Below, piece by piece: positions 2,124 through 44,620 of a stretch of DNA of 46,984 bases. Made by a program: the position numbers and the translations under genes. How positions within the stretch are numbered: position 1 is the first letter of the stretch; each line of letters starts with the position of its first letter. Source of the DNA: a virus; the UHGV virus genome UHGV-0142121, one strand, 5' to 3'. Under the pieces are notes generated by a model. That model was given only the letters and a program-made list of their open reading frames with translations. It ran no database searches and was not told where the DNA came from.

Positions 2124-2141
2124 CCGGGACCGTGGTCCCGG
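2124..2141. repeat. sopC-like palindrome CCGGGACCGTGGTCCCGG followed by TTTT; possible SopB site and/or bidirectional terminator between convergent telN and repA operons
   Basis: 8-bp inverted repeat around a 2-bp centre, 10 nt after the telN stop; same core as the dispersed TGGGACC..GGTCCCA family. Confidence 0.55.
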
Positions 2142-2277
2142 TTTTACAACCGACCTATCCAGCCCGTAGGGACGAACCTCTAACGGCATCCGGCTGAATT
2201 ATATGCCGAAAACTGTCACCAATATTTCTACCGGATGTTTTGCGAAAATTTCCTCGTTCATCCTCTGCGATAAATCA

Positions 2278-2661
2278 TTATTTAAGCTCCGTTTCTGGAA
2301 ACATTTCCTGCAGCCGCTTTTCGTAGCACACATCGTCGAAATACTTCTGCTCAACTTTCAACTCAAAGTCATTCAGCGTCATTTCTACAGGTCTGATACC
2401 ATAAAGCAGGGTACTTTTATTCATATCAAACATTTCCGTTCCTTCTTTGGTCCCTGCATCTTCCAGAACAGATTGAGCTATGTCAGAAAAGCAGATCGCC
2501 GCGCAGCGAAAATCAGCAAAGGCCCGATGCTCTCCAAACTCAGTCACCACATAAACGACGCGGGTCGGGCCACTGGCGCGGCGTTCAATTTCTCGTGCAA
2601 TATCTTGCTTAAGCTCATCCAGATCGTAGTCAGTTAGCTTTTTTACGTTAAGATCAATCAT
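2278..2661 (-). CDS. Hypothetical protein, 127 aa, acidic, last gene of repA operon
   Basis: ORF with ATGA start/stop overlap to the upstream gene; AT-richer than repA by eye; no recognisable motif. Confidence 0.5.
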   Translation of the reverse strand: MIDLNVKKLTDYDLDELKQDIAREIERRASGPTRVVYVVTEFGEHRAFADFRCAAICFSDIAQSVLEDAGTKEGTEMFDMNKSTLLYGIRPVEMTLNDFELKVEQKYFDDVCYEKRLQEMFPETELK

Positions 2662-3050
2662 GCCCCTACCTCACGTAGTTTCTGGTCGATATAACTTTCA
2701 AGTGCGCCATCTGTCGTCTTTTCACGTTTCAAAAACCATCTATCAGACGAAAATTTCCCTCTTTCCCGTTGGTGAATTAAATCGCCAGTGTCACGAATAG
2801 TTCTGGGAACACCCTGCATGACGATTGCAGGAAGAAACATGACAACGATGAGCAAAACCTTCATCCATGCCGAAGTGAAATACTGTGCCTCGAATATCTG
2901 AGATTCTGGCTCGAAGTAATACTCAATTTTTGCTCCAAATCGTTGCTTGCGGTTTGGCAGCATTTTGTTATGCGTAGCCCTGCTTACGGGAATTCGAACG
3001 AATCCTTTCTCACACAAGTTTTCATATTTGTAGATCACGTTAACCCCCAC
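2658..3050 (-). CDS. Hypothetical membrane protein, 130 aa, single central transmembrane helix
   Basis: Hydrophobic segment WMKVLLIVVMFLPAIVM; translationally coupled to neighbours on both sides. Confidence 0.5.
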   Translation of the reverse strand: MGVNVIYKYENLCEKGFVRIPVSRATHNKMLPNRKQRFGAKIEYYFEPESQIFEAQYFTSAWMKVLLIVVMFLPAIVMQGVPRTIRDTGDLIHQRERGKFSSDRWFLKREKTTDGALESYIDQKLREVGA

Positions 3051-3376
3051 TGGCCATCAGCAAACAGCGCTTCGTATTCGGACGCCGGCAGGCGCTGGCC
3101 CTGAATAGAAAAGTTCAGCCAGCCGCGAGTTTGCGGGTTGCCTTTGTCTTCTTCAGTCTCTCCGTTCCAGCGCTTCTCAGCTTCGCGTACCAGGCATTCG
3201 ACAGCTTTCAGGTAGTCCTCAGTTCGGTACCAGCCGTAGTTGACCGAGCCATCAGTTACCGCCCAGGCGACCTTCTTTTGTTCTTCCTGGATAGCACGAA
3301 GCATTTCGTCGCACTTATTCCGGCAGAACTGCAACTGGACACGATCCAGTGTTTTCAAAAAATCAGTAGTCGACAT
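3035..3376 (-). CDS. Hypothetical protein, 113 aa, immediately downstream of repA
   Basis: ORF 11 nt after repA stop on the same strand; no recognisable motif. Confidence 0.5.
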   Translation of the reverse strand: MSTTDFLKTLDRVQLQFCRNKCDEMLRAIQEEQKKVAWAVTDGSVNYGWYRTEDYLKAVECLVREAEKRWNGETEEDKGNPQTRGWLNFSIQGQRLPASEYEALFADGQWGLT

Positions 3377-3386
3377 AGATATCCCC

Positions 3387-6300
3387 TTAAACCGCCTGCA
3401 ACCGCTTCAGTTCGTTGTATTGGCCATCTGATAGTTGCCACATATTGTCAGCCATAAACAGCCCGGCAACCGTCGCCTGTATCAACCGTGGCGGCATAGT
3501 CGCCAGTTGTGCCAGTTCTTCCGGCGTCAGTGCGGTTCTCAGCCATGCAAATGGCACCGGCATCGCAGCGATAGCCTCTTCAATCGTCGTCAGCGTTGCC
3601 TCAATAAATGCCGTCTCAGCAGATCCAGATTGGGATCTTACATCTATATTTGATCGGCAATCGAGATCCGGTTCTTCCGGTGCCCCCACATCCAGTTTCA
3701 TCTGGACAAACGACAGTGATGCCTCGGCGCGACGCGCCAGAATTCCGTGAATGAATTCCCAGGATTCGGGGACGATTGACCACACGTAACCGAGGCCCTG
3801 TGAACGCGGTAGGCGGCGTTTTTGAGTCGCGTAACCGAATGCCTCACAGATCTGTTTGAAAACCGTCTCGGGGCGTTTCTGGCGGCCTTTAGGGTTTATA
3901 TAGCCACCGAACCGCAGGACGTTGTTGAAACGGTCCGCGGTGGTTGGGTCCATAAGTTTGGCCATAGCTTCCGCCATACCTTCCTGGCTGGCTTCACCGG
4001 CGCCGGTATCTGGGTTAATACCGCAGGTGGAGAAATACTCCCTGGCGGCCTTACGGTGCAGCGATGCGTACGTACGCTGGGTTACTTCCATCACCGGGCG
4101 GCTTTGGACGGTGTAGCCGGTTATTCCTGGCTGCATGCGGTCGAACTGCGCATCAGCTGCTTCGCGGTTGAGCGCGGTGATCGTTACAAATTCGTTACGC
4201 GGCCCTTTGCGGAATTGGTAGGTGAACGTGAAAGCCTGCTGCTCACGGTCAATGCGTGCGGCGGTCATTTCATCCATCGTCATCAGTTCGGCCAGCGTCA
4301 GTTTCTTCTTCCCGCCATCGAGCAGGAATTTCAGAGATTCCGGGCTGACATCCAGCATCAACTCTTTTTCGATATCCCAGCGCGCCAGTTGCGCCTGCTC
4401 ATCTTCAGATAGTGATCGCTTGCCCATCAGTTCGTCGCGTTCGTCTTCGTCCGGGGTTTCCACTTCCATATGGCGCAGAACGGTCATATCCCAGACCCGC
4501 TCTTTCGATGCCTTACGCAGTTCTTTGCCGGTTTCGCTGGCCAGCGAGTCTTCGGCCAAGTGGCTGACGTTATAGCCATCGGCGTAGAGAATGCAGATCA
4601 GGTTGTTGGCGAAATCGTTTCTGGCCTGGGCCTCCATCGCGGCAACTTTAAATTTCATGCGGACATAGGTGGTGTCCGCCAGACCAAGGGAAAGGCGGTC
4701 GCCATCCAGGATGGCGTCGGTAAATTCTTCGTTTATCTCGGCGGTTTCCAGCAGTGCCTGCAGGAACCCACGGCGGATGTTGTCGGCGTTCTCTTCGCGT
4801 ACGCCAGGCAGCTTGTTCAGGCCGACCATAAATTCGGTGGCGGTCCTGTCGCGGCGCAGCATCTGAATGGCGTCGGACGGCACTACCTGGCCGCAGAAGC
4901 AGCCGAAATGGCGGGTGAAGTGCCGTTCTTCGATCGAGACGCCAGAACTGATAGCCGGGCTATAAATCAGGCCATCGTAGAGTTTAGCGCGCTGGTTCGG
5001 CGCGTCGGTAAACGCCACGACTTCCTGATCCGGCTTTGTGTCCTGGCTGACGTAAAGCCATTTCTTTTCTGGCCAGCGGTCGCGCAGCTGCAGCAGCAAC
5101 TGTTCGGCAAAATTGGTTGAGTCGGTGGCCAGCAGGAATTTTTCGCCAGCGGCCACAGCTTTCAATACTTCAACCATTATGCGGTCGGTATCGGTGTAAA
5201 GCACGCGGCGCGCTTCGCGCGTACCGTCGACTTTTTTGTACTTCACATCAACCGGCAGCTCGATGACGTGGATCTGTGTCCAGGTCGACAGGCCGGTTTG
5301 TTCGCGTCTGGCCAGCGCCAGTTCGCAGAGGTCTACCAGGATATCGCTGGCGTCCGCATCAACCAGCAGTGCGTGGTCATCGCTGTACGCGATGGAGTCG
5401 ATAAGGCGATTGAACACATCAACCGGGTGCGCCATCGCTTTACCGGAAAGCGTAGCGCGCAGGCCCTGGGTAGCTTCATCCAGGCCAAAGAAATCGTGCT
5501 TGCGCATCAGCGGTTGCCAGCAGCCCTTCACGATTGAATTGATACAGATCGTCAGCTTGCTGGCATACGGCGCCAGTTCCTGATAGCCGGGGTCCTGATA
5601 GTGCAGGATATCGCAATTCATGCGGCGGCCATCGTCGGCACGCGTCATCATGTCCCAGAGGCCACCGATTAGCGAAACGCGGTGCGCAACCGAAACGCCA
5701 CGCTGCGCGCTGTGCATCATAGGGCGCAGCAGGTGCTTGGATTTGCCCGACCCCATGCCGGCACGGACTATTACCGGGCCATTCAGCGCTTTGATGTAAT
5801 CCAGCACGTCTTTGGTCATGTGCGGTGTATCGAACCGCTTATAGGTGATATGATCGGGGCGTATTGCCGGGTTCGTTACGCGCTCGCTGAATGATCGGAA
5901 AGCCTGGGCCTTGTCGCATTTCTGTTTGAAGGCGCGTTTAACGCGGTTATACACGGTACCGTGCAGCGCTTTGTCGGCGCCGAGCTGGTCCAGCTTCATT
6001 TTTATCAGCGAGATCAGCTCCTGCGGGGATAACTTGGACGGGCATTGCATCATGCCGGCATCAATGCAGCGTACCAGCTGGCGTGAGAACGCGCGGCGAT
6101 CGGAAACCGGCGCAACGGCCAGAGACAGCATTTCAGCATCAAAGGAATTGCCTGGCAGCTGCAGGCGGTTCTGTTTTGAAAACAGCTGGCGGTTAGTTTC
6201 GGTGGCACCACGCGCCAGGTGGAGATCGTTGAAATCGCTTAATTCAGTTTCGCTGCTGTCGAAAATCGGGAATGTGCAACGGACCTGCGGGAATTTCTTC

Positions 6301-7376
6301 ATCACGTCGATGCCGACTCTTAACCCGGTATTGCCCTTTCCATTACGGGCCGACTTCTGGTCGTTATCCAGTGCGCACCAGATTTCCATGCCTGGGTACA
6401 GGCTGACCAGCTGATCAACAACCTTGATAACGTTATTTGCTGACACAGCCACGACAACAGCGTCGAAGCGCTTTTTGGCAACGGCAAACACACTGGCGCC
6501 AGTCGCGAAGCCTTCAACAACGCAGATCCTGGTTGCGCCGCGCAGCTGGCCAATGATGTGGCACGAACCAGCAAAGTCACCGGAATCAACAGCGCGGGTC
6601 TGCAGCTTGTCGTTTCTCTCGGTGATTCGCTGCCAGCCAACAATCGGGCCAACGCGAGATTCCCTGTCTTCCCGGCGGTCATCAATATGAGACAGCGGGA
6701 TAGCCATAACAGTTTGTTTTTTAACCGTTTTAGAATTGGGACCATGGTCCCACTGGGTTACGCGCCTGACGTTGCAGTATGAGAAAATGGAGCTGATACC
6801 TTTCTTCACCGCGTATGGCCATGAACCATCTTCTGCCGGTGCGTTGGCGAATGCGGTGGAGAACTGCAGGTATTCGTTCAGGTCAGCGTCGCGGCGCTGC
6901 GACTCCATAAACACAGAGATAGCCTGCTGGCGTTCACGTTCCTGGCGGCGTGCCTCAGCACGTTTACGCTGTTCCAGCTCGCGCGCGGACAGTGGGACCA
7001 CGGTCCCACCGTTCTGTTCTTTGTACCGGCGATATTCGGCTATAAGGAACTGGAAACCACTCCAGGAGCCAGCGTCAGAGCCTTTACATACGAAGTTAAC
7101 AAACGGGTACTTGATGCCTTCCTGCGAACACTCCATGCGGGAGTAGATCTCAACCTTACCTTTCAGCTTTGGCTCAGTAACGGCAGGACCATGATGGGCG
7201 TACTTTGTGAATTTTTCGGCGGCACCGCGAGAGGCAGAAAGTTGAATATCACTGGCGCATTTATGCCAGTCGATGCCGGCAGCGCTCGCAAGATCACTCA
7301 ATTCATTTGATGCCGCGTCAAGCAGCGAAAACGGGTCAGAGTTAAATTTGTGTTGAAAAAAATCCGTTAATTTCAT
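3387..7376 (-). CDS. repA: Replication protein RepA (primase-helicase), about 1329 aa from ATG at 7376; track ORF extends to a TTG at 7388
   Basis: Size and architecture match N15 RepA; Walker A GMGSGKSK; GGTGA ribosome-binding site before the 7376 ATG. Confidence 0.88.
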   Translation of the reverse strand: MKLTDFFQHKFNSDPFSLLDAASNELSDLASAAGIDWHKCASDIQLSASRGAAEKFTKYAHHGPAVTEPKLKGKVEIYSRMECSQEGIKYPFVNFVCKGSDAGSWSGFQFLIAEYRRYKEQNGGTVVPLSARELEQRKRAEARRQERERQQAISVFMESQRRDADLNEYLQFSTAFANAPAEDGSWPYAVKKGISSIFSYCNVRRVTQWDHGPNSKTVKKQTVMAIPLSHIDDRREDRESRVGPIVGWQRITERNDKLQTRAVDSGDFAGSCHIIGQLRGATRICVVEGFATGASVFAVAKKRFDAVVVAVSANNVIKVVDQLVSLYPGMEIWCALDNDQKSARNGKGNTGLRVGIDVMKKFPQVRCTFPIFDSSETELSDFNDLHLARGATETNRQLFSKQNRLQLPGNSFDAEMLSLAVAPVSDRRAFSRQLVRCIDAGMMQCPSKLSPQELISLIKMKLDQLGADKALHGTVYNRVKRAFKQKCDKAQAFRSFSERVTNPAIRPDHITYKRFDTPHMTKDVLDYIKALNGPVIVRAGMGSGKSKHLLRPMMHSAQRGVSVAHRVSLIGGLWDMMTRADDGRRMNCDILHYQDPGYQELAPYASKLTICINSIVKGCWQPLMRKHDFFGLDEATQGLRATLSGKAMAHPVDVFNRLIDSIAYSDDHALLVDADASDILVDLCELALARREQTGLSTWTQIHVIELPVDVKYKKVDGTREARRVLYTDTDRIMVEVLKAVAAGEKFLLATDSTNFAEQLLLQLRDRWPEKKWLYVSQDTKPDQEVVAFTDAPNQRAKLYDGLIYSPAISSGVSIEERHFTRHFGCFCGQVVPSDAIQMLRRDRTATEFMVGLNKLPGVREENADNIRRGFLQALLETAEINEEFTDAILDGDRLSLGLADTTYVRMKFKVAAMEAQARNDFANNLICILYADGYNVSHLAEDSLASETGKELRKASKERVWDMTVLRHMEVETPDEDERDELMGKRSLSEDEQAQLARWDIEKELMLDVSPESLKFLLDGGKKKLTLAELMTMDEMTAARIDREQQAFTFTYQFRKGPRNEFVTITALNREAADAQFDRMQPGITGYTVQSRPVMEVTQRTYASLHRKAAREYFSTCGINPDTGAGEASQEGMAEAMAKLMDPTTADRFNNVLRFGGYINPKGRQKRPETVFKQICEAFGYATQKRRLPRSQGLGYVWSIVPESWEFIHGILARRAEASLSFVQMKLDVGAPEEPDLDCRSNIDVRSQSGSAETAFIEATLTTIEEAIAAMPVPFAWLRTALTPEELAQLATMPPRLIQATVAGLFMADNMWQLSDGQYNELKRLQAV
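6736..6753. repeat. sopC-like palindrome TTGGGACCATGGTCCCAC inside repA coding sequence
   Basis: Near-perfect 18-bp inverted repeat matching the dispersed family; encodes TQWDHGPN in RepA. Confidence 0.7.
7002..7019. repeat. sopC-like palindrome GTGGGACCACGGTCCCAC inside repA coding sequence
   Basis: Core TGGGACCACGGTCCCA, identical to the F sopC inverted repeat as I recall it; encodes GGTVVPL in RepA. Confidence 0.7.
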
Positions 7377-7405
7377 TATTTCACCCAAAAAAAGACGCTG
7401 CGCAG

Positions 7406-7435
7406 TTGCGCAGTGCAGGTGAAACGAACTACAAT
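7406..7435 (+). promoter_or_regulatory. Candidate sigma70 promoter (TTGCGC, 18-nt spacer, TACAAT) pointing away from repA
   Basis: Hexamers read by eye; overlaps TGCGCAG direct repeats at 7399-7413. Confidence 0.3.
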
Positions 7436-7441
7436 CGACTC

Positions 7442-7558
7442 ACAGTTGTGTCTTTGATCAGCTTTGTTCATTAAAGTGAATGCCAATCACTGACTGAGTT
7501 GAATCTAGACCTGTTTCACCCGAAAAGCCCTGGACGCCACATCCGGGGCTTTTTATTT
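7442..7558 (+). ncRNA. Candidate small RNA of about 115 nt ending in an intrinsic terminator (7526-7558); no ORF
   Basis: Promoter-like element upstream; 8-bp stem AGCCCTGG/CCGGGGCT with 9-nt loop followed by TTTTATTT; lies in the repA-cB intergenic region with no plus-strand CDS. Confidence 0.3.
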
Positions 7559-7644
7559 GTCTGAATCCAGAGGTGGTTAAAAAGTGCTCAATCCGCACGC
7601 TACCTCTGGGGCAAGTACATCCTGGTCAGTTGCTATCACGCCAC

Positions 7645-7674: not shown

Positions 7675-7694
7675 ACCTTGGTTACTAAAATTTA

Positions 7695-8324: not shown

Positions 8325-8345
8325 AGAGAGATATTAAATCAAATC

Positions 8346-8631: not shown

Positions 8632-9273
8632 ATGGGACAGAATAAACGTCCATCGCGAGACACAATGTCATCAGTGGTTATACGGGCAACCTTACGGATG
8701 CTCGATGAAACCGGCGGCAGTGTCGCACAATTCTCTACAACGCGCTTGATTCCTGCTCTGGAAGTTCAGGGGCTTGTTGATATGGGGTCTGAAGGCATCA
8801 ATGTCACAGATTACATGCGCTGGCGTAGCCGTTGCATTAAGCGAGCACAGCGCGTCCTGGCTGGCGATACACCGATGCCTGCAGATTGGGTGTTAACGTG
8901 GTTGTCATGTCTTCCGGAAGAGTACCGTAACAAGTGCTCTCAGAAGCTGGCAGCGATGCAGGGCCTGCAATGGGTCCGCATGCCTAAGTACAACCGTATT
9001 CGTGTTGATTCAGTCGACGCTGAAATTGACGAGATTACTGTGAAATTCGGTGCCGTTCTCGCCAACTCAGCGCCAGCCCAGGATGGCGTATACGATGGCA
9101 GTGATGACCAGCACGCCCTGAAGCAGCTGCAGAACCGCCTGTATGAGTTGTCGTCATACCTCTATCGGGAAATCCTGAATATAGAAATGGCCACCGGCAT
9201 TAAACCGGACCACGTTGAACTTGGTGCGCTGAGTCCGCTGGGCCATCAAGCAGGGGGCAAATATGCAGTTTAA
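8632..9273 (+). CDS. Hypothetical early protein, 213 aa (possible regulator)
   Basis: First gene after cro in the same operon; no confident motif. Confidence 0.45.
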   Translation: MGQNKRPSRDTMSSVVIRATLRMLDETGGSVAQFSTTRLIPALEVQGLVDMGSEGINVTDYMRWRSRCIKRAQRVLAGDTPMPADWVLTWLSCLPEEYRNKCSQKLAAMQGLQWVRMPKYNRIRVDSVDAEIDEITVKFGAVLANSAPAQDGVYDGSDDQHALKQLQNRLYELSSYLYREILNIEMATGIKPDHVELGALSPLGHQAGGKYAV

Positions 9274-9928
9274 TTTTGTTCGCAACGAGCTTACTGCAGC
9301 GCTCTTGTCGTTCTCAAAATCTCACCGCAATCAGATCGTCGCGATGGCAGAACGTGCGCCACTGCAGAGCCGATTTACTGCAAAGCCGCAGCGTGAAATT
9401 GATATCGATAACGACACTGTCATTGTCATTGATGCCGAGCCAATCAGCTACAGAGAAGGCAAGCGTTACCATACGAGCATGATCCCGGTATCGCCAGCCA
9501 TTTTTAGCCAGGTGTCATGGCGTAGCGCGTTATTGAAAATGCCTGAGCCGTATAAATCCTGGTTGAATTACTGCTACGGCGATTCAATTTCATTTGAATA
9601 TCAAACAATACTGACAACACATATCTGGCATTCCCTGCTGATTAACCTGGCTGAAAGCAAATCGCCAAAAATGAACGGCAAGACTGAAAGCAACTTAAAA
9701 GCACTTGCCTGGTTGGCTCTACAGGAATCAAAAAATTTCATTAACCGCGGCGAGCTTAAATACAGCCAGGAAGAATTGAGCCAGCTATGTGGTGTGAAAT
9801 ATGACCTATGGCGGAAGAATTATAAAAATCGCTGGGATGTCATGTTGGCCTGCAGTGTTCAAATGGATCGGGAGGCGTTAATACATGTCGACCAATTACG
9901 GAAGAAGCATATCAGCAACAGGCGGTGA
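9263..9928 (+). CDS. Hypothetical early protein, 221 aa (antiterminator Q-like role possible by position only)
   Basis: AGGGGG ribosome-binding site; no confident motif. Confidence 0.45.
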   Translation: MQFNFVRNELTAALLSFSKSHRNQIVAMAERAPLQSRFTAKPQREIDIDNDTVIVIDAEPISYREGKRYHTSMIPVSPAIFSQVSWRSALLKMPEPYKSWLNYCYGDSISFEYQTILTTHIWHSLLINLAESKSPKMNGKTESNLKALAWLALQESKNFINRGELKYSQEELSQLCGVKYDLWRKNYKNRWDVMLACSVQMDREALIHVDQLRKKHISNRR

Positions 9929-10191: not shown

Positions 10192-10209
10192 TTGGGACCA
10201 TGGTCCCAA
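10192..10209. repeat. sopC-like palindrome TTGGGACCATGGTCCCAA (perfect)
   Basis: Perfect 18-bp palindrome in the 12-nt gap between two early genes. Confidence 0.75.
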
Positions 10210-16168: not shown

Positions 16169-16186
16169 TTGGGACCATGGTCCCAA
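16169..16186. repeat. sopC-like palindrome TTGGGACCATGGTCCCAA (perfect)
   Basis: Perfect 18-bp palindrome just upstream of the putative late promoter. Confidence 0.75.
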
Positions 16187-16194: not shown

Positions 16195-16283
16195 TTGCAA
16201 AAACTTCACAAAAAAATTAAACTTTTTCTAAGTTGGGTTTTCTGTAACCAGCTTATTCTAACCGCCTTCATGGCGGTTTTTTT
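16195..16283 (+). promoter_or_regulatory. Putative late promoter (TTGCAA ... TAAACT) plus short leader ending in an intrinsic terminator (16261-16283)
   Basis: Promoter-like hexamers followed about 40 nt later by hairpin ACCGCC-TTCAT-GGCGGT and seven T, upstream of the methyltransferase-lysis operon; architecture resembles Q-dependent late promoters. Confidence 0.35.
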
Positions 16284-16419: not shown

Positions 16420-17481
16420 ATGGAAAACACTGTAAATATAAACAGTGCCGTTCTTGTGCGTGCTGATACTCTGGCATACATAAAAACTCTCCCGGACAAC
16501 AGTATCGATGCCATCATCACCGACCCGCCCTACTACAAAGTAAAGGCGGCATCGTGGGATAACCAATGGCCGACGGCTGTTGATTATCTGGCATGGCTCG
16601 ATGAGTGCTTGGCGGAATTCTGGCGGGTGCTGAAGCCGGCTGGCTCTCTGTACGTATTCTGCGGTCCTAAGCTGTCATCTGACACAGAACTGCTGATAGG
16701 CGAGCGGTTCAACGTGCTAAACCATATCATCTGGGCCAAACCGAGCGGTCGTTGGAACGGCTGCCGGAAAGAGGATTTGAGATCGTATTTCCCGGCGACT
16801 GAGCACATTGTGTTTGCTGAACATTATGGCTCTGAGGGATTCGCAAAAGGTAATGCCGGGTATGCGACGAAGTGCCGGGAACTGAAAAGCCAGGTCTTTG
16901 CGCCGTTGATTGAATACTTCCGAACTACCCGGCAGCGCTTGGGCATTTCGGCTGCAGAGATCAACGCGGCGACGGGAACCCAAATGTGCAGCCACTGGTT
17001 TAGTTCAAGCCAATGGCAACTGCCCAGCGAAAAACAATACCAGGCTCTTCAGGCGTTGTTTAACCGGGTAGCGAAAGAGAAGCAAACCTCTGGCTTACTG
17101 TCCGACCACGCCGCGCTGGAAGCGGAATACAACGAGTTATCGGAACAGTATTCAGAACTGGTAAAGCAGTACAGCGATTTGCGTGAGCAGTACGAAAACC
17201 TGCGGCGCCCATTCAGGGTAACAAAGGATGTACCGCATACGAACGTCTGGACGTACCCACCAGTTCAGCATTATCCCGGTAAACATCCATGTGAAAAGCC
17301 GATAGAGATGATGATCGATATTATCTCGGCCAGTACTCGACCTGGCGACCTGGTAGCCGACTTCTTCATGGGTTCGGGTGCAACGGTTAAAGCAGCTATG
17401 CAGCTGGGCCGGCGTGCTATCGGCGTTGAGCTGGAAGAGGAGCGCTTCTTACAGACTGTCTCAGAAATTACAGAACTATAA
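16420..17481 (+). CDS. DNA methyltransferase, 353 aa, first gene of the late operon
   Basis: DPPY catalytic motif (IITDPPYY) near the N-terminus and AdoMet-binding FFMGSGAT near the C-terminus. Confidence 0.75.
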   Translation: MENTVNINSAVLVRADTLAYIKTLPDNSIDAIITDPPYYKVKAASWDNQWPTAVDYLAWLDECLAEFWRVLKPAGSLYVFCGPKLSSDTELLIGERFNVLNHIIWAKPSGRWNGCRKEDLRSYFPATEHIVFAEHYGSEGFAKGNAGYATKCRELKSQVFAPLIEYFRTTRQRLGISAAEINAATGTQMCSHWFSSSQWQLPSEKQYQALQALFNRVAKEKQTSGLLSDHAALEAEYNELSEQYSELVKQYSDLREQYENLRRPFRVTKDVPHTNVWTYPPVQHYPGKHPCEKPIEMMIDIISASTRPGDLVADFFMGSGATVKAAMQLGRRAIGVELEEERFLQTVSEITEL

Positions 17482-19644: not shown

Positions 19645-19662
19645 TTGGGACCATGGTCCCAA
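19645..19662. repeat. sopC-like palindrome TTGGGACCATGGTCCCAA (perfect)
   Basis: Starts at the base after the upstream stop codon; followed by an intrinsic terminator. Confidence 0.75.
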
Positions 19663-19669
19663 TGAAATG

Positions 19670-19692
19670 AACCACCTTCGGGTGGTTTTTTT
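19670..19692 (+). terminator. Intrinsic terminator closing the lysis operon
   Basis: Stem AACCACC/GGTGGTT with TTCG loop, then TTTTTTT. Confidence 0.65.
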
Positions 19693-19804
19693 ATGCGCAT
19701 CGCACGCGCACATCAAAGAGAGTCTTTCAGTAGTGAGCCTGGGTAATCCGTTAACTCTTGGCGGCTTTGCCGTGCGACAGGCTCACGTCTAAAAGGAAAT
19801 AGCT

Positions 19805-19978
19805 ATGCAATTCGGTAAAAAATCAAAGTCAGGTTTGAGGGCGTTTATTCGCAATGACGGGATAATCATCAGCGATAAAAAGGGAAATGCCCGCATCGTT
19901 ATCGGTGTACTCGGTGATGATAAACATGTCTTACGCAGTGGTCGTCCTTCTACCTTCAACCAGTTAGGCCGCGCTTGA
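19805..19978 (+). CDS. Small hypothetical protein, 57 aa, basic
   Basis: AGGA ribosome-binding site 7 nt upstream; ends 12 nt before the next gene; below the track cutoff. Confidence 0.4.
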   Translation: MQFGKKSKSGLRAFIRNDGIIISDKKGNARIVIGVLGDDKHVLRSGRPSTFNQLGRA

Positions 19979-19990
19979 AAGGAGTAAATA

Positions 19991-22042: not shown

Positions 22043-22480
22043 ATGGCGATGGGTGTGCGATCTCCAGGCGGTGGCCGGAAACCGAATAATATCGGCACAC
22101 AAGTCAGTTCAGTAACACGCGCCGTTTCGCCGCCAGATGAATTGCTGGGTGATATGGCCATTGATGCCTGGAAACGAACCTGCCGGCTGATGATCGATCG
22201 TGGCAACTTCGAAATGGAAGACTGCTACTTGCTGATGGAGTACTGCAACACGGTGCAGCTGCTGTACGACGCTAATCAGGAAATCAAAGGAGACGGGATC
22301 GGTGATGCGACTGCTGCCGGCGGCCAGAAGCTGGGCGCCGCGGTGAAAGCGCGTGATAAGTACATTTCGCAGCTCATCAGGCTGAGCGTCGTTCTGAAAC
22401 TGGACCCGAACAGCCGGGTCAGAGTTGCTAATCCGGGGCAAGGTGGCAAAGAAGCGGGAAACGATTTCGACGATTTTTAA
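22043..22480 (+). CDS. Terminase small subunit, about 145 aa
   Basis: Position directly upstream of terminase large subunit; GGAGG before ATG 22043. Confidence 0.55.
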   Translation: MAMGVRSPGGGRKPNNIGTQVSSVTRAVSPPDELLGDMAIDAWKRTCRLMIDRGNFEMEDCYLLMEYCNTVQLLYDANQEIKGDGIGDATAAGGQKLGAAVKARDKYISQLIRLSVVLKLDPNSRVRVANPGQGGKEAGNDFDDF

Positions 22481-22498
22481 TTGGGACCACGGTCCCAT
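22481..22498. repeat. sopC-like palindrome TTGGGACCACGGTCCCAT at the terS/terL junction
   Basis: 16-mer TGGGACCACGGTCCCA starts at the base after the terS stop and precedes the terL ATG. Confidence 0.7.
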
Positions 22499-28065: not shown

Positions 28066-28413
28066 ATGGCTGGAAAACCTAAAACCAAAACAGACGCGGA
28101 CACCACAACTTCCGTTGATGGTGTTGATGCGATTATTGATACCTCCAATATTGTCGACAGTGTGATTTCTGGTGATGTGATTACCGGTGATGAAATTGGG
28201 ACCGTGGTCCCAGCGGTGAAATCCGCGCCGGAACGTCGCGCTGTTGTGTTCCTGGGGCCGTACCATCGTTATTCGCGCGCTGATGTCGCTGCGTTCGATG
28301 CCGAATACGCTGAAGAGCTTGTTGCACGCAATATCGCTGCCTGGCCAGAAGATGCGAAGCGGGCGTTGAATCCTCGTCGGGGAGACGATGACCATGAAAC
28401 CGACATTGGATGA
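28066..28413 (+). CDS. Hypothetical head-region protein, 115 aa; contains a sopC-like palindrome
   Basis: GGAGA ribosome-binding site; palindrome 28196-28213 encodes DEIGTVVPAV. Confidence 0.4.
   Translation: MAGKPKTKTDADTTTSVDGVDAIIDTSNIVDSVISGDVITGDEIGTVVPAVKSAPERRAVVFLGPYHRYSRADVAAFDAEYAEELVARNIAAWPEDAKRALNPRRGDDDHETDIG
28196..28213. repeat. sopC-like palindrome TTGGGACCGTGGTCCCAG inside a CDS
   Basis: 16-mer TGGGACCGTGGTCCCA with 2-bp centre. Confidence 0.65.
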
Positions 28414-34293: not shown

Positions 34294-34671
34294 ATGAAAG
34301 GACTATTTTCCGCACTTATTATGTGTATTGCATTAACTGGTTGTGTCCAACCTATGACAAAAGCTGAAGTTGATCGTGCAGTTTATGAACCGTTGCCTGC
34401 AGATTACCAAGAGCAAATAAAATCAACGATTGAGCTTAAGCTAAAAGATCCTGACTCTGCAAAATATCGGTTTTTCGACCCCAAAAAAGGATATACAGAG
34501 GGTACACGACACTTTGGCTTTGTAGTTCCCGTAGGTGTTAACGCAAAAAATAGCTATGGTGGATATACAGGTTATAAATTGTATTATTTCGTTTATTACA
34601 ACCAATCATTCAAGGATGTCACCGAAGGCGTAGCATGGGATGCAGTCAAATGGTCTGATGACGTCAAATAG
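34294..34671 (+). CDS. Lipoprotein, 125 aa, moron inserted between tail genes M and L
   Basis: Signal peptide with lipobox LTGC; AT-rich codons; own ribosome-binding site and own terminator. Confidence 0.6.
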   Translation: MKGLFSALIMCIALTGCVQPMTKAEVDRAVYEPLPADYQEQIKSTIELKLKDPDSAKYRFFDPKKGYTEGTRHFGFVVPVGVNAKNSYGGYTGYKLYYFVYYNQSFKDVTEGVAWDAVKWSDDVK

Positions 34672-34691
34672 CCTCACCCCGTCCCCACACA

Positions 34692-34714
34692 AACCCCGCT
34701 CTACGGGGTTTTTT
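34692..34714 (+). terminator. Intrinsic terminator after the lipoprotein moron
   Basis: Stem AACCCCG/CGGGGTT with CTCTA loop, then TTTTT. Confidence 0.6.
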
Positions 34715-34718: not shown

Positions 34719-34736
34719 TTGGGACCATAGTCCCAA
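34719..34736. repeat. sopC-like palindrome TTGGGACCATAGTCCCAA (one mismatch)
   Basis: Lies between the moron terminator and the gpL ribosome-binding site. Confidence 0.65.
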
Positions 34737-36866: not shown

Positions 36867-39800
36867 ATGGAAATTACAGGCGCAAAAGGTGGCGGCGGCA
36901 GCGGAAGTAGCGATAAAGGCGAGAATCGCGGTACCGAGATCGCTTCAGTTGCTTACATGAAGATATTACTGGCGCTGACCGAAGGCGAAGCCGCCGGCGG
37001 ATTCTCAGGCAAGGATATTTATCTCGATGGCACACCGCTGCTGGATGATTCCGGGAATGCAAACTTCCCAGGCGTTACCTGGGAATGGCGTAGCGGGACT
37101 GTCGACCAGCCATATATTTCCGGCTTCCCTGCTGTTGAAAATGAAGTGGCCGTTTCTACGGAGCTGAAATACGGGACGCCGTGGGTTAAGTCGATTAATA
37201 ACACGCAGCTCTCAGCCGTTCGTCTGCGCCTGAAGTTCCCTAATGGCCTGTATGAACTGCGAGACTCAGGTGGGAAGAGCGGTTATACCGTTGAGTTTGC
37301 CATTGATATCTCAACTGATGGCAGTTCCTATGTCGAATACGGGCGGGATACCGCAAGTGGTATTGCTAATAATGGCTATGAGCGTAGCTATCGAATTGAG
37401 CTGCCACCGGCACAGGCTGGATGGCAAATTCGTGTAAGACGCCTTACACCAAACGCCAATGATGCACGGCACGCCGATACATCCCGAATCGAATCGATAA
37501 CCGATATCGTTGATGCCAAGCTGCGGTATCCCCACACCTCGCTGCTGTTCGTCCAGTTCGATTCTCAGTTGTTCGATGGTCGTACGCCGACAGTAACGAT
37601 AAAAATGAAGGGGATCATTATTCGCGTTCCATCGAACTATGACCCGATCAACAGGACGTATAGCGGTACGTGGGACGGGACGTTTAAATGGGCATGGACG
37701 AACAACCCGGCCTGGATTTTTTACGACATCGTGACGAATGCCCGGTACGGCCTGGGTCGCCGCATAACGACAAACCTCGTTGATAAGTGGACGCTCTATC
37801 AGATAGCTCAGTACTGCGATGCGAAGGTTTCTGACGGCGCAGGAGGCACAGAAGCGCGTCATCTTTGCGACCTGTACATTTCACAGAGAACCGACGCCTG
37901 GACGGTCCTGATGGATTTGGCGGCGATTTTCAGGGGGATGATCAGCTGGTCGAATAATCTGCTTTCGCTTGATGCCGATATGCCGCGCGAGCTGGACCCG
38001 GACTTTGTCTTCAATAAGTCCAATATTGTCGGTTCGTTCAACTTCTCCAGCTCATCCGAACGTACCAACTATTCTGCGGCGATAGTGACTTACAGCAACC
38101 CGAACAACGGCTACAACGATGATCAGGCCAGCGTTCACGTACCTGAAGTATCTTCGCGATTTGGTTTCAATACGATGGAAATGACTGCCGTCGGCTGCAC
38201 GCGCGAGAGTGAGGCGCAGCGCCGCGGATTGTGGGGCATCGAGACAAACCGCGATGATAATGCGGTGGAGTTCAAAACGGGCATGGAAGGCCGTATTCCG
38301 AGGGTAGGCAAAGTGATCGGCGTGAATAACGCACCACTGGCCGGACGGGCGAACGGTGGCCGTGTAGCTGCAGCTGCAGGTACAAAAATCACGCTGGACA
38401 GGAATACCGTTGCCGTTCCCGGTAATCGGCTGATCATCAACCTGCCGACGGGAAAGGCCGAAGGACGAACGATTAAGTCAGTATCTGGCCGCGCGGTCAC
38501 TGTGGAATCTGCATACAGCGTATTACCGAACGCTGAGTCGGCGTGGGTAATTGACCAGCAGGATCTGGCCATCCAGTTATTCAGGGTTCGCCGTGTGGCC
38601 ATCGGGAGTGATGACCTGGTGACAATATCCGGGTTGCCCTATAACCCGAACAAATTCGCGAAAATTGATGATGGCGCGATTGTCGAAGACCGTCCTGTGA
38701 CCGTGGTCCCACCAGGTAGCCAGGCTGTACCAACGAACATTGAAATCACCAGTGAATACCGAATTGTTCAGGGGATAGGTATTAACACCCTGGTCGCAAC
38801 ATGGGACCCGGTGGTAAACGCCATCGCCTACGAGGTGCAATGGCGCCAGAACAGCGGCGACTGGATTAATGGAGGCAGGACAGGAAATACCCGAATTGAG
38901 GTCGATGGTATTTATGCCGGCCGTTATGTCGTTCGTGTTCGGGCCATCAACGCGATGGATGTTGCCTCGGTATGGGCAGTATCAAAGGAAGTCCAGCTGG
39001 ATGGCAAAATCGGGAAGCCACCCGTTCCTGTCAATTTGAGAACAACCCCGATGCTATGGGGTATTCGTATCGACTGGTCTATTCCCGCAGGAGCTGAGGA
39101 CTCGCTCTATACGGAGCTGCAGTATGCGCAGGAACGCGACGGCAACACGGCTCTGTTGCTGAGTAATGTTCCTTACCCGCAGTCCACATATTCACAGATG
39201 GGGCTTCGTGCCGGGCAGGAGTTCTGGTATCGAGCGCGCCTTATCGACAAAATAGGCAACCGCTCTGACTGGACTGACTGGGAGAGAGGGCTTTCCAATG
39301 ATAATACGGATGAGTATCTGGATAGTATTGGTACCGGTTTTCTTACATCCGCCGACGGTGACCGCCTGACAAGCGATATTGATACCGACCTCGAAGCCGC
39401 ATTACAGAACGCGCTGGCCAACCACGCAACGGCTGAACATCAGTGGGCGCAGTATGGTGAAGTCCGCGCGGATATTCTGGTGGTCAAAACGACCATTGCT
39501 GATGTTGATAAAGCGATGGCTGAAATGACCACCCAGGTACAGGCGCAGATTAAAGATGTCACCGCCTCGCTTGAGGATAAGCTCACCGCCACCGTTGATG
39601 CTACAAGTGCTACGGCCATTCATACCCTGAAAGCCGGAGTGCGCATCAACGGTATTTTTTACAGTGCCGGGATATCGATTGCGGTACTGGCCGAAGCGGG
39701 TAAGCCGGTGGTCACTCGTGTCGGGTTTAACGCCAACCAGTTCGTCCTGATGAGTGGCAGCGGTGATACGCAGTATTCACCGTTTGCTGTTATCAATGGT

Positions 39801-41029: not shown

Positions 41030-41038
41030 GGAAAAACT

Positions 41039-42397
41039 ATGTCAGCAGGAACCTTAACCCTGACGAATAACTCTGCTGCGGTCGCTGGTAGCGGGACCGC
41101 GTTTACTACCGAGGTGGCGGCCGGAGATTTTATTGTTGTCACTGTCGGCGGCGTTCCCTATACACTCCCGATTAAATCAGTGGAAAGCGGTACAGCATTG
41201 ACGCTGGTCAGCAATTTCACCGGGCCAACACAGTCTGGCGCTGCCTGGTTTGCTGTTCCGCGCGTGGCGCTTAATATGGTTACCGCGGCGCTGGTGACTC
41301 AAAGCGCGGAGGCACTGCGCGGACTGAACTACGATAAGCAGAACTGGCAGCAGTTTTTTACTGCCGATGGTGATGTAACGATTGCGCTTCCTGATACCAG
41401 CCAGACAACGGGGCCATCAGCGAAAAAGTTAATTAAAAGTGTTAACGATAAAGCAGATAAAACAGCGCTTGATGAGTACGCCAAAAAGGGCAGCAACAGC
41501 GATATCACGAGTCTTTCCGGCCTAACTACTGCCCTAAGTGTTAAGCAGGGCGGGACAGGAGGTGACAATAAGACTGGCGCATGTAAAGGTATAGGTGCCA
41601 TGAATGCGGAATTGTCGGTGCCTAATGCCTCGGCGATAGCCCTGCCATCTGGATCGTTCTTCCTGGGTGATGGTCAGGAGGCTGGAGGGGCAGGTAAGCC
41701 ATTCACCTATTCGATGATTCTGCAATTATCTGCTGGTGGCGCAAGTCCTACAGGAGACTGGGTGCAGGTGGCATATCAGATGTTTGGTACCGGCGCTCCG
41801 AAATACCGAACACGTGTTGATTCTCCACCATCTCTGTCTAACTGGTTCGACTTCCTTGTCCGTGGAGTAAATACTACGGTGGACTCCAATGGATTCTACA
41901 AAACTTCATCGCCGATTATTAAAATTTGGGGGGATGGGACCTCTGAATTAAACGATGAGTCCGAAGGGGCAACCGTTGTCCGAATGGATACAGGGGTTTA
42001 TAAAGTATCTGGCGTCATGGGGTTTAACTCCAGTCCGGAGTGGGGAGGCGTGGAGGGCGGATATTCAGTACCGCAAAACGGCAACGGGCTGCCTCTGTTG
42101 TGGCTGGATTACGAAATAGCATCTGATGGTGATATTACAGTCCGAACGTATCATCGTACACACAGTAATGCGCCAGAATTTGCCCGAAACCTGATTGGTA
42201 TTAAACATGACGATGGTTCATTTACCGAAACGGTTAAAGATGGCGACCCGGTGGATATCCCGGCTGGTCGCTGGATAGATCTGCGCGTTGAGATGCCCCA
42301 CAACAGCATCTGGAATATTAAACAGATCGAGGCACAGGAAGCCAGAGAAAAAGCTGAGCGCGAGCGCCAGGAAAATCAGCAGGATGCCCAGTTGTAA
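41039..42397 (+). CDS. Tail fibre protein, 452 aa
   Basis: Position after J; Gly/Ser/Thr-rich with KQGGTGG motif; C-terminal coiled-coil tail. Confidence 0.6.
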   Translation: MSAGTLTLTNNSAAVAGSGTAFTTEVAAGDFIVVTVGGVPYTLPIKSVESGTALTLVSNFTGPTQSGAAWFAVPRVALNMVTAALVTQSAEALRGLNYDKQNWQQFFTADGDVTIALPDTSQTTGPSAKKLIKSVNDKADKTALDEYAKKGSNSDITSLSGLTTALSVKQGGTGGDNKTGACKGIGAMNAELSVPNASAIALPSGSFFLGDGQEAGGAGKPFTYSMILQLSAGGASPTGDWVQVAYQMFGTGAPKYRTRVDSPPSLSNWFDFLVRGVNTTVDSNGFYKTSSPIIKIWGDGTSELNDESEGATVVRMDTGVYKVSGVMGFNSSPEWGGVEGGYSVPQNGNGLPLLWLDYEIASDGDITVRTYHRTHSNAPEFARNLIGIKHDDGSFTETVKDGDPVDIPAGRWIDLRVEMPHNSIWNIKQIEAQEAREKAERERQENQQDAQL

Positions 42398-42532
42398 AAA
42401 TGGATAGTTGCCGCAACCACACCGTATGCAAGAGCATGATTGCGGCCGACTGGCGAACGTTCGATAGTGCGAGTATTGAATGATTGCCAGTCACGGCGGA
42501 TTGTACTTAAGCAATATGACGGTTCAAGGCGT

Positions 42533-42775
42533 TTAATCTGAAACCAGCCACATATCAGCCTCTTCAAACATTTCCTGAACAGCTCGGCTTATCTGTTCCT
42601 TCTCGTGCTTGCTGGCGTCAGTGTTGATCGCCGGCAATGTCATCATCGGTTTAACCCGGACATCAGCATCGGGGAAGATCCGGTGAACCCTCTTAGTCAA
42701 CTCGCCCAGAATGATATCTTTTGCACCGGGCAGACCATCAAAATTCCTTTTGTCATAAACGAGTTCCACGAACAT
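42533..42775 (-). CDS. DinI-like protein, 80 aa
   Basis: Aligns by eye with E. coli DinI (ELTKRVHRIFPD..., KHEKEQISRAVQEMFEEADMWLVSD vs KEDKQRISEILQETWESADDWFVSE). Confidence 0.7.
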   Translation of the reverse strand: MFVELVYDKRNFDGLPGAKDIILGELTKRVHRIFPDADVRVKPMMTLPAINTDASKHEKEQISRAVQEMFEEADMWLVSD

Positions 42776-42790
42776 TGCTCATTGCCTCTT

Positions 42791-42810
42791 TACTGGATGG
42801 ATATACAGTA
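42791..42810. promoter_or_regulatory. LexA-box-like element TACTGGATGGATATACAGTA within the divergent dinI-like / umuD'-like promoter
   Basis: CTGG-N8-ACAG, 17/20 to consensus; sits between -35-like TTTACT (42789) and -10-like TATACT (42812) of the rightward promoter. Confidence 0.5.
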
Positions 42811-42853
42811 TTTATACTGTGTTTTTATCCGGTGTTCAAGAGAGGGTATAAAC

Positions 42854-43243
42854 ATGGGCTTTCCTTCACCTGCGGCAGATTATGTTGAAACACGAATCTC
42901 CCTCGATCAGCAACTAATCAGCCAGCCCGCAGCGACTTATTTCATGCGGGCATCGCGTTCACATTTCAGGGAAGGAATACTCCAGGGAGCGTTGCTTGTT
43001 GTGGATGCATCACTTACTGCCTGCGATGGTTCACTACTGATATGTGCAATAGACGGGGAATTCAGGATCAAGCGATACCGAACTCACCCTCAGCCCCACC
43101 TGATAAATCTGGAAAACGGAAGAAGGGAGGCGCTGCCAGTAGATGATGGCGGTTACAGTTCTGCACCCGCTATATTCGGGGTGATCACGTACATCATTAA
43201 TGATGCCAGGAACGCGGAGTTTGATGACTGCCCGGTGATGTGA
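42854..43243 (+). CDS. UmuD'-like protein, 129 aa, starts at the position equivalent to the UmuD self-cleavage site
   Basis: MGFPSPAADYVETRISLDQQLISQPAATYF matches E. coli UmuD from Gly25 onward; the nucleophile-Ser region (GDSM in UmuD) is divergent; no umuC downstream. Confidence 0.7.
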   Translation: MGFPSPAADYVETRISLDQQLISQPAATYFMRASRSHFREGILQGALLVVDASLTACDGSLLICAIDGEFRIKRYRTHPQPHLINLENGRREALPVDDGGYSSAPAIFGVITYIINDARNAEFDDCPVM

Positions 43244-43340
43244 GAATCCACAGAAAACATCATATGCAAATTCCGTCAGAAGGAGATTTAGCGAAAAAAC
43301 ATTCTCCAAAACTCATTTGTAACTACATGATTTTATAGAG

Positions 43341-43380
43341 TTTGGCATGCAGTTTACTTGAAGGTAAAAAGCATGCCAAA
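43341..43380. repeat. 10-bp perfect inverted repeat TTTGGCATGC / GCATGCCAAA, 20-bp spacer, between convergent umuD'-like and sopB
   Basis: Seen directly; no adjacent T-run. Confidence 0.3.
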
Positions 43381-43438
43381 TTAAGCGTTAACTTATTGAA
43401 TGATATAAATTAACTATCTATGTCGCTAACCTTCTTGT

Positions 43439-44620
43439 TCAAAGGACGTAGCGCTTTGCTATTTCGTTACCTATTTTTTGAATCCGCTGGTCTTCAGTGG
43501 TTTCATCATTTAGTACGGTTCTGGCGAACGGGATTAGGGCCAGAATTTCGTTGGCGGGGATATCGTATTTCAAGCCTGTCGCCGCGGCGCGGATGTAGTT
43601 GGTCACATCATTAATTTCTAAAAATGCCTCATCCACTACCTTACCAACCGATTTTTGCTGTTCGGCCTGGTGAGCTTCCAGTAGTTCTTCAATCCTCTGT
43701 ACTAACGCTGGCGATACGTTGCTAAGTTGGAAGGATACAGAATCCCCCTTGTACTTCGCTTTCATCCCTTTACCAAACAGGCGCTCACGCACTGCAGGTT
43801 TTACTGGCTTTTGCGCTACCTGGTGCAGCTGGTCAAGAATGTCATCAGTTTCGAGCTGTTCACCAGCGCGCTTGCGCTTGGCCAGATGCTGCGCAAACGC
43901 AAACATTGCATCTTCATTCTCGGCATAGACTTTTGCCAGTGCCTCACCAGCTCTGGCGCTCAGCTCGTTAGGGTTACGGAAAAGGCCAATGATTTCGCGT
44001 GGTAGCTCTGCCGTCTTCATGCAGCGGACGATAATTTTTCGGGAGATATTCTCCGCTTCGGCCAGCTTACTGACGGTACCACCGAACTCATTAGCCAGGC
44101 GGCGAGCATAGCGTTTTCCGCGTTCGTAAGAGCTGGTCTGCCGGTAGTCGTTCCCGATCTGTGATAGCCAGGCCATTTGTTCGTCGTCCAGCTCGCCGAC
44201 GAGAACGCGGTATTCAGAGCTGGTGTAAATGGCTGTCTGGCGGCGGCGGCTACCGTCGGCCACTTCAATGATGCCAGAAATTTTGCGGCCAAAAGCTGGG
44301 TTTTGTTGCCCGGATGCGAGGAATGATGGGATCAGGTCATCCAGGGCGTCTTTTGTCAGTAGAGCCTGGTCCCGCTCGTTGCCGCCCCATACCATGGTCG
44401 CCTTTTCCACCATGTTTGCATCGACGGTTTCCAGCTTAAACGACACATCCCGCCCACAGACCGGAAGGGTGATATGGTTCCCGGTCATCCCGCGGACGCG
44501 TTCGCTTAGGTTTGCCACCGCCGGCGCCGCTGGTTTATGCGCTTCATCATGTCGTGGGACCGCGGTCACAGTGTCCAGATTAATTTGCGGAGCGTTTTTC
44601 ATTACAGGCGCGCGTTTCAT
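43439..44620 (-). CDS. sopB: Partition protein SopB (ParB family), about 393 aa from ATG 44620
   Basis: N-terminal 230 aa closely match my recollection of F SopB (ITLPVCGRDV, NERDQ, DALDDLIPSF, RVLVGELDDEQMA, AENISRKII); start overlaps sopA stop (ATGA). Confidence 0.85.
   Translation of the reverse strand: MKRAPVMKNAPQINLDTVTAVPRHDEAHKPAAPAVANLSERVRGMTGNHITLPVCGRDVSFKLETVDANMVEKATMVWGGNERDQALLTKDALDDLIPSFLASGQQNPAFGRKISGIIEVADGSRRRQTAIYTSSEYRVLVGELDDEQMAWLSQIGNDYRQTSSYERGKRYARRLANEFGGTVSKLAEAENISRKIIVRCMKTAELPREIIGLFRNPNELSARAGEALAKVYAENEDAMFAFAQHLAKRKRAGEQLETDDILDQLHQVAQKPVKPAVRERLFGKGMKAKYKGDSVSFQLSNVSPALVQRIEELLEAHQAEQQKSVGKVVDEAFLEINDVTNYIRAAATGLKYDIPANEILALIPFARTVLNDETTEDQRIQKIGNEIAKRYVL
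44555..44570. repeat. Degenerate sopC-like site TGGGACCGCGGTCACA inside sopB 5' coding region (one mismatch)
   Basis: 15 of 16 match to the palindrome core. Confidence 0.3.

Follow-up and report, generated by a model that had tools for sequence, protein, structure and literature searches.

F-type SopB boxes dispersed along a PY54-like linear plasmid prophage genome: candidate centromere sites

The viral genome UHGV-0142121, whose 46,984 bp are referred to here as the window, is, judging from its gene content and ends, a complete linear plasmid prophage of the N15/PY54 type, with hairpin telomeres, the protelomerase gene telN, the replication gene repA and the partition genes sopAB. Along its whole length it carries short palindromes that resemble the SopB-binding sites of the F plasmid centromere, sopC. 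What are these palindromes for? An initial annotation of the window regarded them as a multi-centromere system that doubles as a transcriptional boundary network. Based on the analysis presented here, we assign a probability of about 85% to the reading that the SopAB system of the prophage itself uses the eleven palindromes, hereafter called boxes, as dispersed centromere (parS/sopC-equivalent) sites.

The box array and its match to SopB

The 16-bp core TGGGACCNNGGTCCCA occurs seven times in the window without any mismatch (Table 1), as compared with 0.00 occurrences expected from 100 dinucleotide-preserving shuffles of the same sequence. Allowing up to two mismatches adds four copies (Boxes 1, 9, 10 and 11), giving 11 occurrences versus 0.09 expected; the genome-wide array described in the initial annotation is therefore real. 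The family is sharply bounded, as a search with three mismatches yielded no twelfth copy in the window. Some details of the earlier description required revision: the nine copies called perfect or near-perfect comprise seven perfect ones, one with a single mismatch and one with two; the copy placed at 7002 starts at 6993 (6992 for the 18-bp form); and the proposed 18-bp unit, TTGGGACC..GGTCCCAA, is perfect solely at 10192, 16169 and 19645, leaving 16 bp as the solid unit. The central dinucleotide is purine-pyrimidine in 11 of the 11 boxes (chance 0.25^11 = 2e-7), the flanking sequences have nothing in common among the copies, and Rfam and tRNA scans gave no match at or near the boxes. The variant boxes are genuine and not sequencing errors, since the variant at 2125 is identical in four independent assemblies and the one at 34720 recurs in a relative.

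The initial annotation had equated the core with the F sopC inverted repeat (IR). This identification holds: in an IncFIA plasmid, TGGGACCACGGTCCCA recurs at 43-bp intervals in the sopC array downstream of sopAB, and the F SopB site consensus is the same as the window core (Pillet 2011). By surface plasmon resonance imaging, positions 2, 4, 5, 6 and 7 of the F site were found to be essential and positions 1 and 3 minor, with a purine-pyrimidine centre (Pillet 2011). Three of the four variant boxes in the window are altered solely at position 1 (2125) or position 3 (38696 and 44555), which F SopB tolerates, and all three variant boxes of PY54 are changed at position 3.

The protein encoded by sopB agrees with this assignment. 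It matches the Pfam SopB helix-turn-helix family SoPB_HTH (PF18090) with 90.7 bits versus a cutoff of 27, aligns to the F SopB crystal-structure chains (PDB 3mky and 3mkw), and has a recognition helix, ENISRKII, identical to that of F SopB. Residues R190, K191, R195 and R219 (F numbering), which have been assigned to base contacts in F SopB (Pillet 2011), are all conserved, and the ParB arginine patch GSRRR is invariant in the SopB alignment. Pfam domains, helix and contact residues bear out the earlier statement that the element encodes F-like SopA and SopB.

Across nine genomes, the type of recognition helix matches the type of box in nine out of nine cases. The window, PY54 and Salmonella pSe13 have the ENISRKII helix and solely TGGGACC boxes, while N15, phiKO2, Enterobacter phage MStein-2023a, pJBIWA007_2, NAR688 and Kpn_R1 have the helix EG(I/V)DRNI(I/V), with N where F has K191, and solely TGCGACC boxes. 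The N15-type box, TGCGACCNNGGTCGCA, is not present in the window within one mismatch. By box and helix alike, the window belongs to the PY54/F specificity group and not to the N15-type group. The RepA protein tracks the box type as well: at the codons of Box 3, which read G-T-V-V-P in the window, N15 and phiKO2 have TGCGACC..GGTCGCA, encoding A-T-V-V-A.

In the mechanism that we propose, SopB dimers would recognise each 16-bp box through the F-type helix-turn-helix. Like other ParB proteins, SopB would load and spread on neighbouring DNA, gathering the 47-kb plasmid into partition complexes; nucleoid-bound SopA-ATP would then position these complexes, and each daughter cell would inherit the low-copy prophage.

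Table 1. Boxes and principal features of the window, with the start positions of homologous boxes in three telomere phages (aa, amino acid)
Feature	Position	Strand	PY54	N15	phiKO2	Description
Left telomere palindrome	1..54					Perfect 54-bp palindrome
telN, protelomerase	213..2114	+				57% aa identity to N15 TelN and phiKO2 TelK
Box 1	2125..2140		26513			CGGGACCGTGGTCCCG; convergent gap after telN; position 1 changed symmetrically in both arms
repA, replication protein	3387..7376	-				51% aa identity to N15 and phiKO2 RepA
Box 2	6737..6752		30984			Perfect; inside repA; encodes W-D-H-G-P
Box 3	6993..7008		31240	33480	37906	Perfect; inside repA; encodes G-T-V-V-P; positional homologue of N15 IR1
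Q-like antiterminator gene	9263..9928	+				28% aa identity to N15 and phiKO2 Q
Box 4	10193..10208		34394	35931	40346	Perfect; between Lar-like gene (downstream of Q) and next gene, 265 bp after Q; homologue of N15 IR2
Box 5	16170..16185		40976	41125	45385	Perfect; 9 bp upstream of late-promoter -35; positional homologue of N15 IR3
Putative late promoter region	16195..16278	+				-35 TTGCAA 16195-16200; -10 TAAACT 16218-16223; terminator 16260-16278
Box 6	19646..19661		44409	45562	48619	Perfect; 2 bp after DUF4406-family gene, 8 bp before terminator 19669-19688; homologue of N15 IR4
Box 7	22482..22497		508			Perfect; 36-bp terS/terL gap; T6 directly after
Box 8	28197..28212		6566			Perfect; inside head-region gene 28066-28413; encodes G-T-V-V-P
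Box 9	34720..34735					TGGGACCATAGTCCCA; before gpL, 9 nt after terminator 34691-34711; essential position 7 changed, one arm
Box 10	38696..38711					TGTGACCGTGGTCCCA (TGTGACC...); inside J; tolerated position 3 changed
sopB, ParB-family centromere-binding protein	43439..44620	-				393 aa; SopB helix-turn-helix, F-type recognition helix
Box 11	44555..44570		22251			TGGGACCGCGGTCACA (...GGTCACA); sopB codons 18-22 (spyB in PY54); position 3 changed
sopA, ParA-type ATPase	44617..45786	-				72% aa identity to N15/phiKO2 SopA; Pfam AAA_31, CbiA
Right telomere palindrome	46931..46984					Perfect 54-bp palindrome

Boxes in related phages and plasmids

In F, 10-12 boxes follow sopB directly, repeated in tandem every 43 bp. 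The window shares with this type Ia ParABS system, SopABC, the identical 16-bp site, the recognition helix, the contact residues, the rule for the centre and the GSRRR patch; its boxes, in contrast, lie 2-6.5 kb apart. No box was found between sopB and umuD within three mismatches, in agreement with the earlier observation that the copies are dispersed and not clustered beside sopAB. This lack of a tandem cluster rules out an F-like centromere architecture, but not membership among the Sop systems. As a side observation, F-like sopC tandem arrays occur in assemblies labelled as an Alicyclobacillus fastidiosus plasmid, Raphidiopsis brookii D9 and a Lachnospiraceae metagenome-assembled genome; these arrays, with sop genes ~64-67% identical to those of the window at the DNA level, probably stem from contaminating or wrongly binned plasmid DNA of enterobacteria.

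Each of N15 and phiKO2 carries four boxes, which have the sequence reported for N15 (PMC7205306) and are labelled 'putative plasmid partitioning site' in the phiKO2 annotation. N15 SopB makes foci on an array of four N15 IR sites (Fig 4C) and works with F sopC too (PMC7205306). Like the window, both phages are linear, hairpin-ended plasmid prophages whose single 16-bp inverted-repeat boxes are scattered and not in tandem, and the three genomes have four homologous box points: ~370 bp into repA, downstream of Q, just ahead of the late promoter and its terminator, and behind the DUF4406-family gene (N15 gene 57, phiKO2 gp58). The window differs from both in its box (TGGGACC vs TGCGACC) and recognition helix, in having 11 boxes instead of four, with boxes also in the arm of structural genes and ~2 kb inside each telomere, in the distance between box and late-promoter -35, and in a C-terminal extension of SopB. 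The initial annotation had supposed that the window has more boxes than N15, and our count agrees; since N15-type phages use TGCGACC, this comparison spans two specificity groups. Two Klebsiella phages of the N15-type group, NAR688 and Kpn_R1, have seven boxes each.

PY54 is the closer counterpart. It has 11 F-type boxes, eight perfect and three with one mismatch, and nine of the 11 window positions have a PY54 homologue (Table 1). Box type and helix are the same, and the PY54 protein SpyB, of 393 aa as in the window, is 66% identical to the window SopB, which has no closer match in the phage collection. The two genomes differ in that their DNA similarity is ~69% over a third of the genome and their distal tail genes are unlike; PY54 is also without boxes at the junction of the tail genes M and L or in J, has extra boxes after antA and at 41121, and contains a 15.7-kb box-free stretch.

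A scan of IMG/VR for perfect boxes returned, among the matches listed, many contigs of 40-52 kb with 6-15 perfect boxes; many of these relatives carry 8-15 boxes at the syntenic positions of the window, including the M/L-junction and J boxes that PY54 is without. The box points are syntenic in PY54 and in these contigs, although the flanks have only ~45-60% of bases in common. The arrangement is thus not special to this genome; it is conserved in a PY54-like sub-clade, and it is not found in N15 and phiKO2. In part, this is the outcome that the initial annotation had itself named as counting against its proposal, an array conserved rather than new. The boxes beyond the IR1-IR4 homologues would accordingly be an ancestral feature of the sub-clade with the F-type helix (PY54 and uncultivated relatives), and not an innovation of this genome. 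Conservation of the core itself was rejected as a phylogenetic footprint because the relatives were picked by a perfect-box scan; syntenic placement and flank divergence are the usable evidence.

Consensus F sites 'dispersed over the genome' in 'three bacteriophage genomes' have been mentioned in one sentence (Pillet 2011). Beyond this remark, we found no published description of the PY54 array in a search that did not reach the phiKO2 genome paper and the PY54 genome paper of 2003.

Three observations on individual contigs stand apart. IMGVR_UViG_2832090241_000001 has 15 perfect boxes, several of them as doublets 37-38 bp apart (e.g., 12643/12681, 14418/14456, 19092/19130 and 20022/20059), and no such paired boxes occur in the window or PY54. 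In IMGVR_UViG_3300012078_000004 (83,162 bp), the box positions are mirror-symmetric about ~41.57 kb, indicating an inverted dimer of a 41.6-kb telomere phage, produced by hairpin fold-back assembly or representing a replication intermediate. A contig scan for two boxes ~240 bp apart found mostly F-like sopC arrays and one telomere-phage scaffold; it is uninformative for host range because 6 x 43 bp in sopC arrays gives the same spacing.

The individual boxes differ in how far they are kept. Boxes 2 and 3 lie 256 bp apart, an interval that recurs in PY54 and in at least eight IMG/VR contigs; at the codons of Box 2, N15 and phiKO2 encode W-S-R-G-P and have no box. Box 8 has counterparts not only in PY54 but also in many relatives. 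Reading the codons by eye, four of the five in-gene boxes are read in one common frame, giving x-T-(V/A)-V-P. Seven contigs of close relatives with identical gpL were compared at the Box 9 site. A single one of them, which has the gene set of the window and stands for 13 further similar places, carries the window variant, whereas the site is perfect in the other six and in at least seven distant relatives; the change at position 7 is therefore recent in the lineage of the window. In two of the seven close relatives, Box 10 has acquired a second change, which implies weak constraint and probably a marginal site.

At the phiKO2 terS/terL junction (495-515), the sequence is TTGTGACTGCGGCTAAA where the window (22480-22497) reads TTGGGACCACGGTCCCA, and it resembles a decayed relic of Box 7. 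Such a relic would suggest that the N15-type lineage lost late-region boxes rather than that the F-type lineage gained them.

Partition, transcription and spacing

The putative late promoter downstream of Box 5 has a 17-nt spacer and a conserved TTTTCTAAGTTGGG after the -10 element, and aligns with the annotated late promoters of N15 and phiKO2. The gap between Box 5 and the -35 element is exactly 9 bp in the window, PY54 and at least seven relatives, versus 21 bp in N15 and 20 bp in phiKO2, a difference of about one helical turn. Mutants of N15 IR2 and IR3 are said to delay lysis. Since four boxes of the window are positional homologues of N15 IR1-IR4, the side-role of N15 SopB in late transcription is probably retained at Boxes 4 and 5; by analogy with N15, a regulatory side-role for a subset of the boxes, chiefly these two, is plausible.

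A stronger proposal puts transcriptional punctuation first and partition second: the boxes would delimit operons, working as RNA hairpins and terminators or, alternatively, as roadblocks and insulators formed by SopB. The initial annotation stated that most boxes lie at gene junctions, and indeed six of the 11 are intergenic, with the gene positions as described, in a genome that is ~85-92% coding (binomial P 8.5e-5 to 2.7e-3 for 8-15% non-coding). Such an excess is nevertheless expected in any case, since a fixed 16-mer is tolerated more easily in non-coding DNA, and the other five boxes are inside open reading frames (ORFs; repA twice, gene 28066-28413, J and sopB). The phasing of Box 5 to the late promoter and the reported lysis phenotype of the N15 mutants speak for a transcriptional role; however, a promoter scan detected no excess of promoters near boxes, and only Box 5 stands beside a recognisable promoter. 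Some boxes resemble terminators. Box 7 with its T6 scores as terminator-like, and box and T-run are kept together in five of eight relatives. In N15 and phiKO2, the place of Box 1 is taken by an ordinary terminator hairpin of telN. The flanks of Box 1 lengthen the palindrome to 10-bp arms followed by TTTT, and this lengthening is achieved by AACC..GGTT in the window and by ATGTA..TACAT in PY54, where a box is also present, with a hairpin of -15 to -17 kcal/mol. Box 9, together with the strong terminator 9 nt ahead of it, forms a conserved module. Against this, the hairpin of a bare box is weak (~-10 kcal/mol, z-score near -1), a T-run is present at Boxes 1 and 7 only, the terS/terL box of PY54 has no T-run, and relatives do not keep the terminator that follows Box 6. 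Of the boundary network originally proposed, the intergenic placement of six boxes and the 9-bp phasing stand, while the five in-gene copies and the weak hairpins do not fit, and we consider it unlikely that transcriptional punctuation is the main function.

The IncP plasmid RK2/RP4 may offer, by analogy, a model of how a network with both functions would work. Its KorB is likewise a ParB-family protein with about a dozen palindromic OB sites scattered on the replicon. KorB operators are mostly at or near promoters, which KorB represses. In the window, by contrast, a single box is close to a promoter, five lie within genes, and the boxes have no sequence relationship to OB. The dispersed RK2 sites may contribute to segregation (PMC3597684).

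Two further explanations were weighed. The boxes could be targets of another sequence-specific function, such as restriction-modification or a methyltransferase (GGWCC lies inside the core), the protelomerase, RepA or Q; the phage does encode DNA methyltransferase homologues (e.g., 16420-17481), two boxes are inside repA and one is beside telN. The 16-bp unit, the purine-pyrimidine centre and the tolerance of changes at positions 1 and 3 are, however, exactly the F SopB pattern, and box type follows SopB helix type across the nine genomes. In addition, the telomere palindrome is unrelated in sequence to the boxes, and the late methyltransferase of phiKO2 is 80% identical to that of the window, yet phiKO2 has boxes of the other type; we regard this explanation as very improbable. 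Short perfect palindromes scattered in one genome could also be mobile or selfish repeats, similar to repetitive extragenic palindromic sequences or miniature inverted-repeat transposable elements, or a functionless accident of composition. With zero copies expected by chance, no common sequence flanking the copies, syntenic points kept in genomes whose flanks have diverged to ~50%, and some copies in frame within conserved proteins, this idea is scarcely tenable.

Several points weigh against a dispersed centromere. The case for this element rests wholly on homology; the window SopB is only ~52% identical to F SopB, and it carries a C-terminal extension of ~75 aa (residues 318-393; 43439-43669) that has no Pfam match and is common to PY54 SpyB and Salmonella pSe13 ParB and absent from the SopB proteins of F, N15 and phiKO2. 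Box 9 is altered at an essential position and Box 10 is decaying in close relatives, from which it follows that not all copies are under strong selection. The perfect cores seen in relatives are partly so by construction, because these genomes were found by means of perfect boxes. Finally, a single N15 IR is reported to be enough for plasmid stability; in that case, the retention of about ten boxes is not explained by partition alone.

The spacing of the boxes bears on this last point. From box to box, the distances are 2.8-6.5 kb, apart from the 256-bp pair in repA. When this pair is merged (ten loci) and the two ends are included, all gaps are 2.1-6.5 kb and more even than random (P ~5e-4 to 1e-3), a result that needs the variant boxes to be counted and is not significant with the perfect boxes alone. 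Even spacing as a general property was rejected in view of the 15.7-kb gap of PY54 and one IMG/VR genome with its 15 boxes in one arm, and relatives with the same spacing are not independent evidence because synteny is shared. A box ~2 kb inside each telomere is present in the window and PY54; N15 has none. It is conceivable, though rather doubtful, that the centromere of this sub-clade is effectively 'holocentric', selected for clamp loading and expression coupling. SopB loading sites would then extend from telomere to telomere, beginning ~2 kb inside each end and with gaps of at most 6.5 kb, and would maintain a load of sliding SopB clamps, which are able to slip off DNA ends, over the linear replicon as a whole. 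SopB occupancy would be coupled to expression through the phase-locked late-promoter box and the boxes at former terminator positions.

The prophage and the significance of its array

Both ends of the window are perfect palindromes, indicating that the assembly read through the hairpins, 27 nt beyond each tip. The two palindromes have the common core CACATTATTAAATATACGCGCGTATATTTAATAATGTG, and several GTTACGAT(G/A)AT-like repeats in the ~150 bp inside each telomere may be protein-binding sites. With N15 and phiKO2 proteins as tblastn queries, the map is syntenic throughout with both phages. The first half comprises telN, a leftward operon ending in repA, cB/cro/Q, the early region and the late methyltransferase; the second half contains the lysis genes, terS/terL, head genes, a lambda-like tail, dinI/umuD, and sopB-sopA adjoining the right telomere. 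The sop operon, in which sopA is directly upstream of sopB with a 4-nt overlap, adjoins a telomere in N15, phiKO2 and PY54 as well. In the same searches, amino acid identity to N15/phiKO2 proteins was 50-80% overall and lower for Q (Table 1). TelK Pfam domains are present on proteins identical to the window TelN.

Searches of the phage and plasmid collections yielded no close relative at the DNA level, the best match having at most 75% identity over ~25% of the sequence, and a search of complete E. coli genomes with the window gave no match. Proteins identical to the window TelN are found in 45 collection blocks and those identical to the window gpL in 131, on public contigs of 40-50 kb; this phage is therefore common, yet without a characterised isolate representing it.

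Three regions outside the box array deserve mention. Between sopA and the right telomere, a GNAT acetyltransferase gene (45966-46448), also present in near-identical contigs, is probably accessory cargo. A non-coding segment of ~120 bp (19681-19801) is 90-95% identical to many lambdoid phages (mEp390, mEp237, HK639 and phi80) and matches an Aeromonas phage, in surrounding DNA that is unrelated; the HK639 copy is annotated as 'terminator'. This segment contains a 9-bp stem, GTGAGCCTG...CAGGCTCAC, is followed by a 57-aa ORF (19806-19979) and has no Rfam match. The slot between the tail genes M and L (34294-34671) is a moron hot-spot: relatives with identical gpL have differing small genes there (125, 116 or 119 aa, or a 108-aa YecR-family protein), and all of these genes precede one and the same terminator-plus-box module.

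Taken as a whole, the array probably represents the PY54/F-specificity form of a system already known, the dispersed centromere of telomere phages; it is expanded from the four sites of N15 and in this respect largely ordinary. Its modest interest comes from the link between helix and box, the phasing to the late promoter and the coverage from telomere to telomere. Two SopB specificity groups are apparent among telomere phages, one with the F-type helix and TGGGACC and the other with the N15-type helix and TGCGACC, and this split suggests that the helix changes N187G, S189D and K191N may act as a natural, testable specificity switch. Among the matches listed, the F-type group has 8-15 boxes genome-wide rather than four in one arm, an array barely mentioned in the searchable literature, though visible in PY54, sequenced in 2003. 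The fixed distance of 9 bp, compared with 20-21 bp, between box and late promoter gives a handle on the help that a partition protein lends to late transcription. Elements of the F-type group are common in public assemblies, and they would serve conveniently as a natural model of how ParB loads onto linear DNA with hairpin ends.

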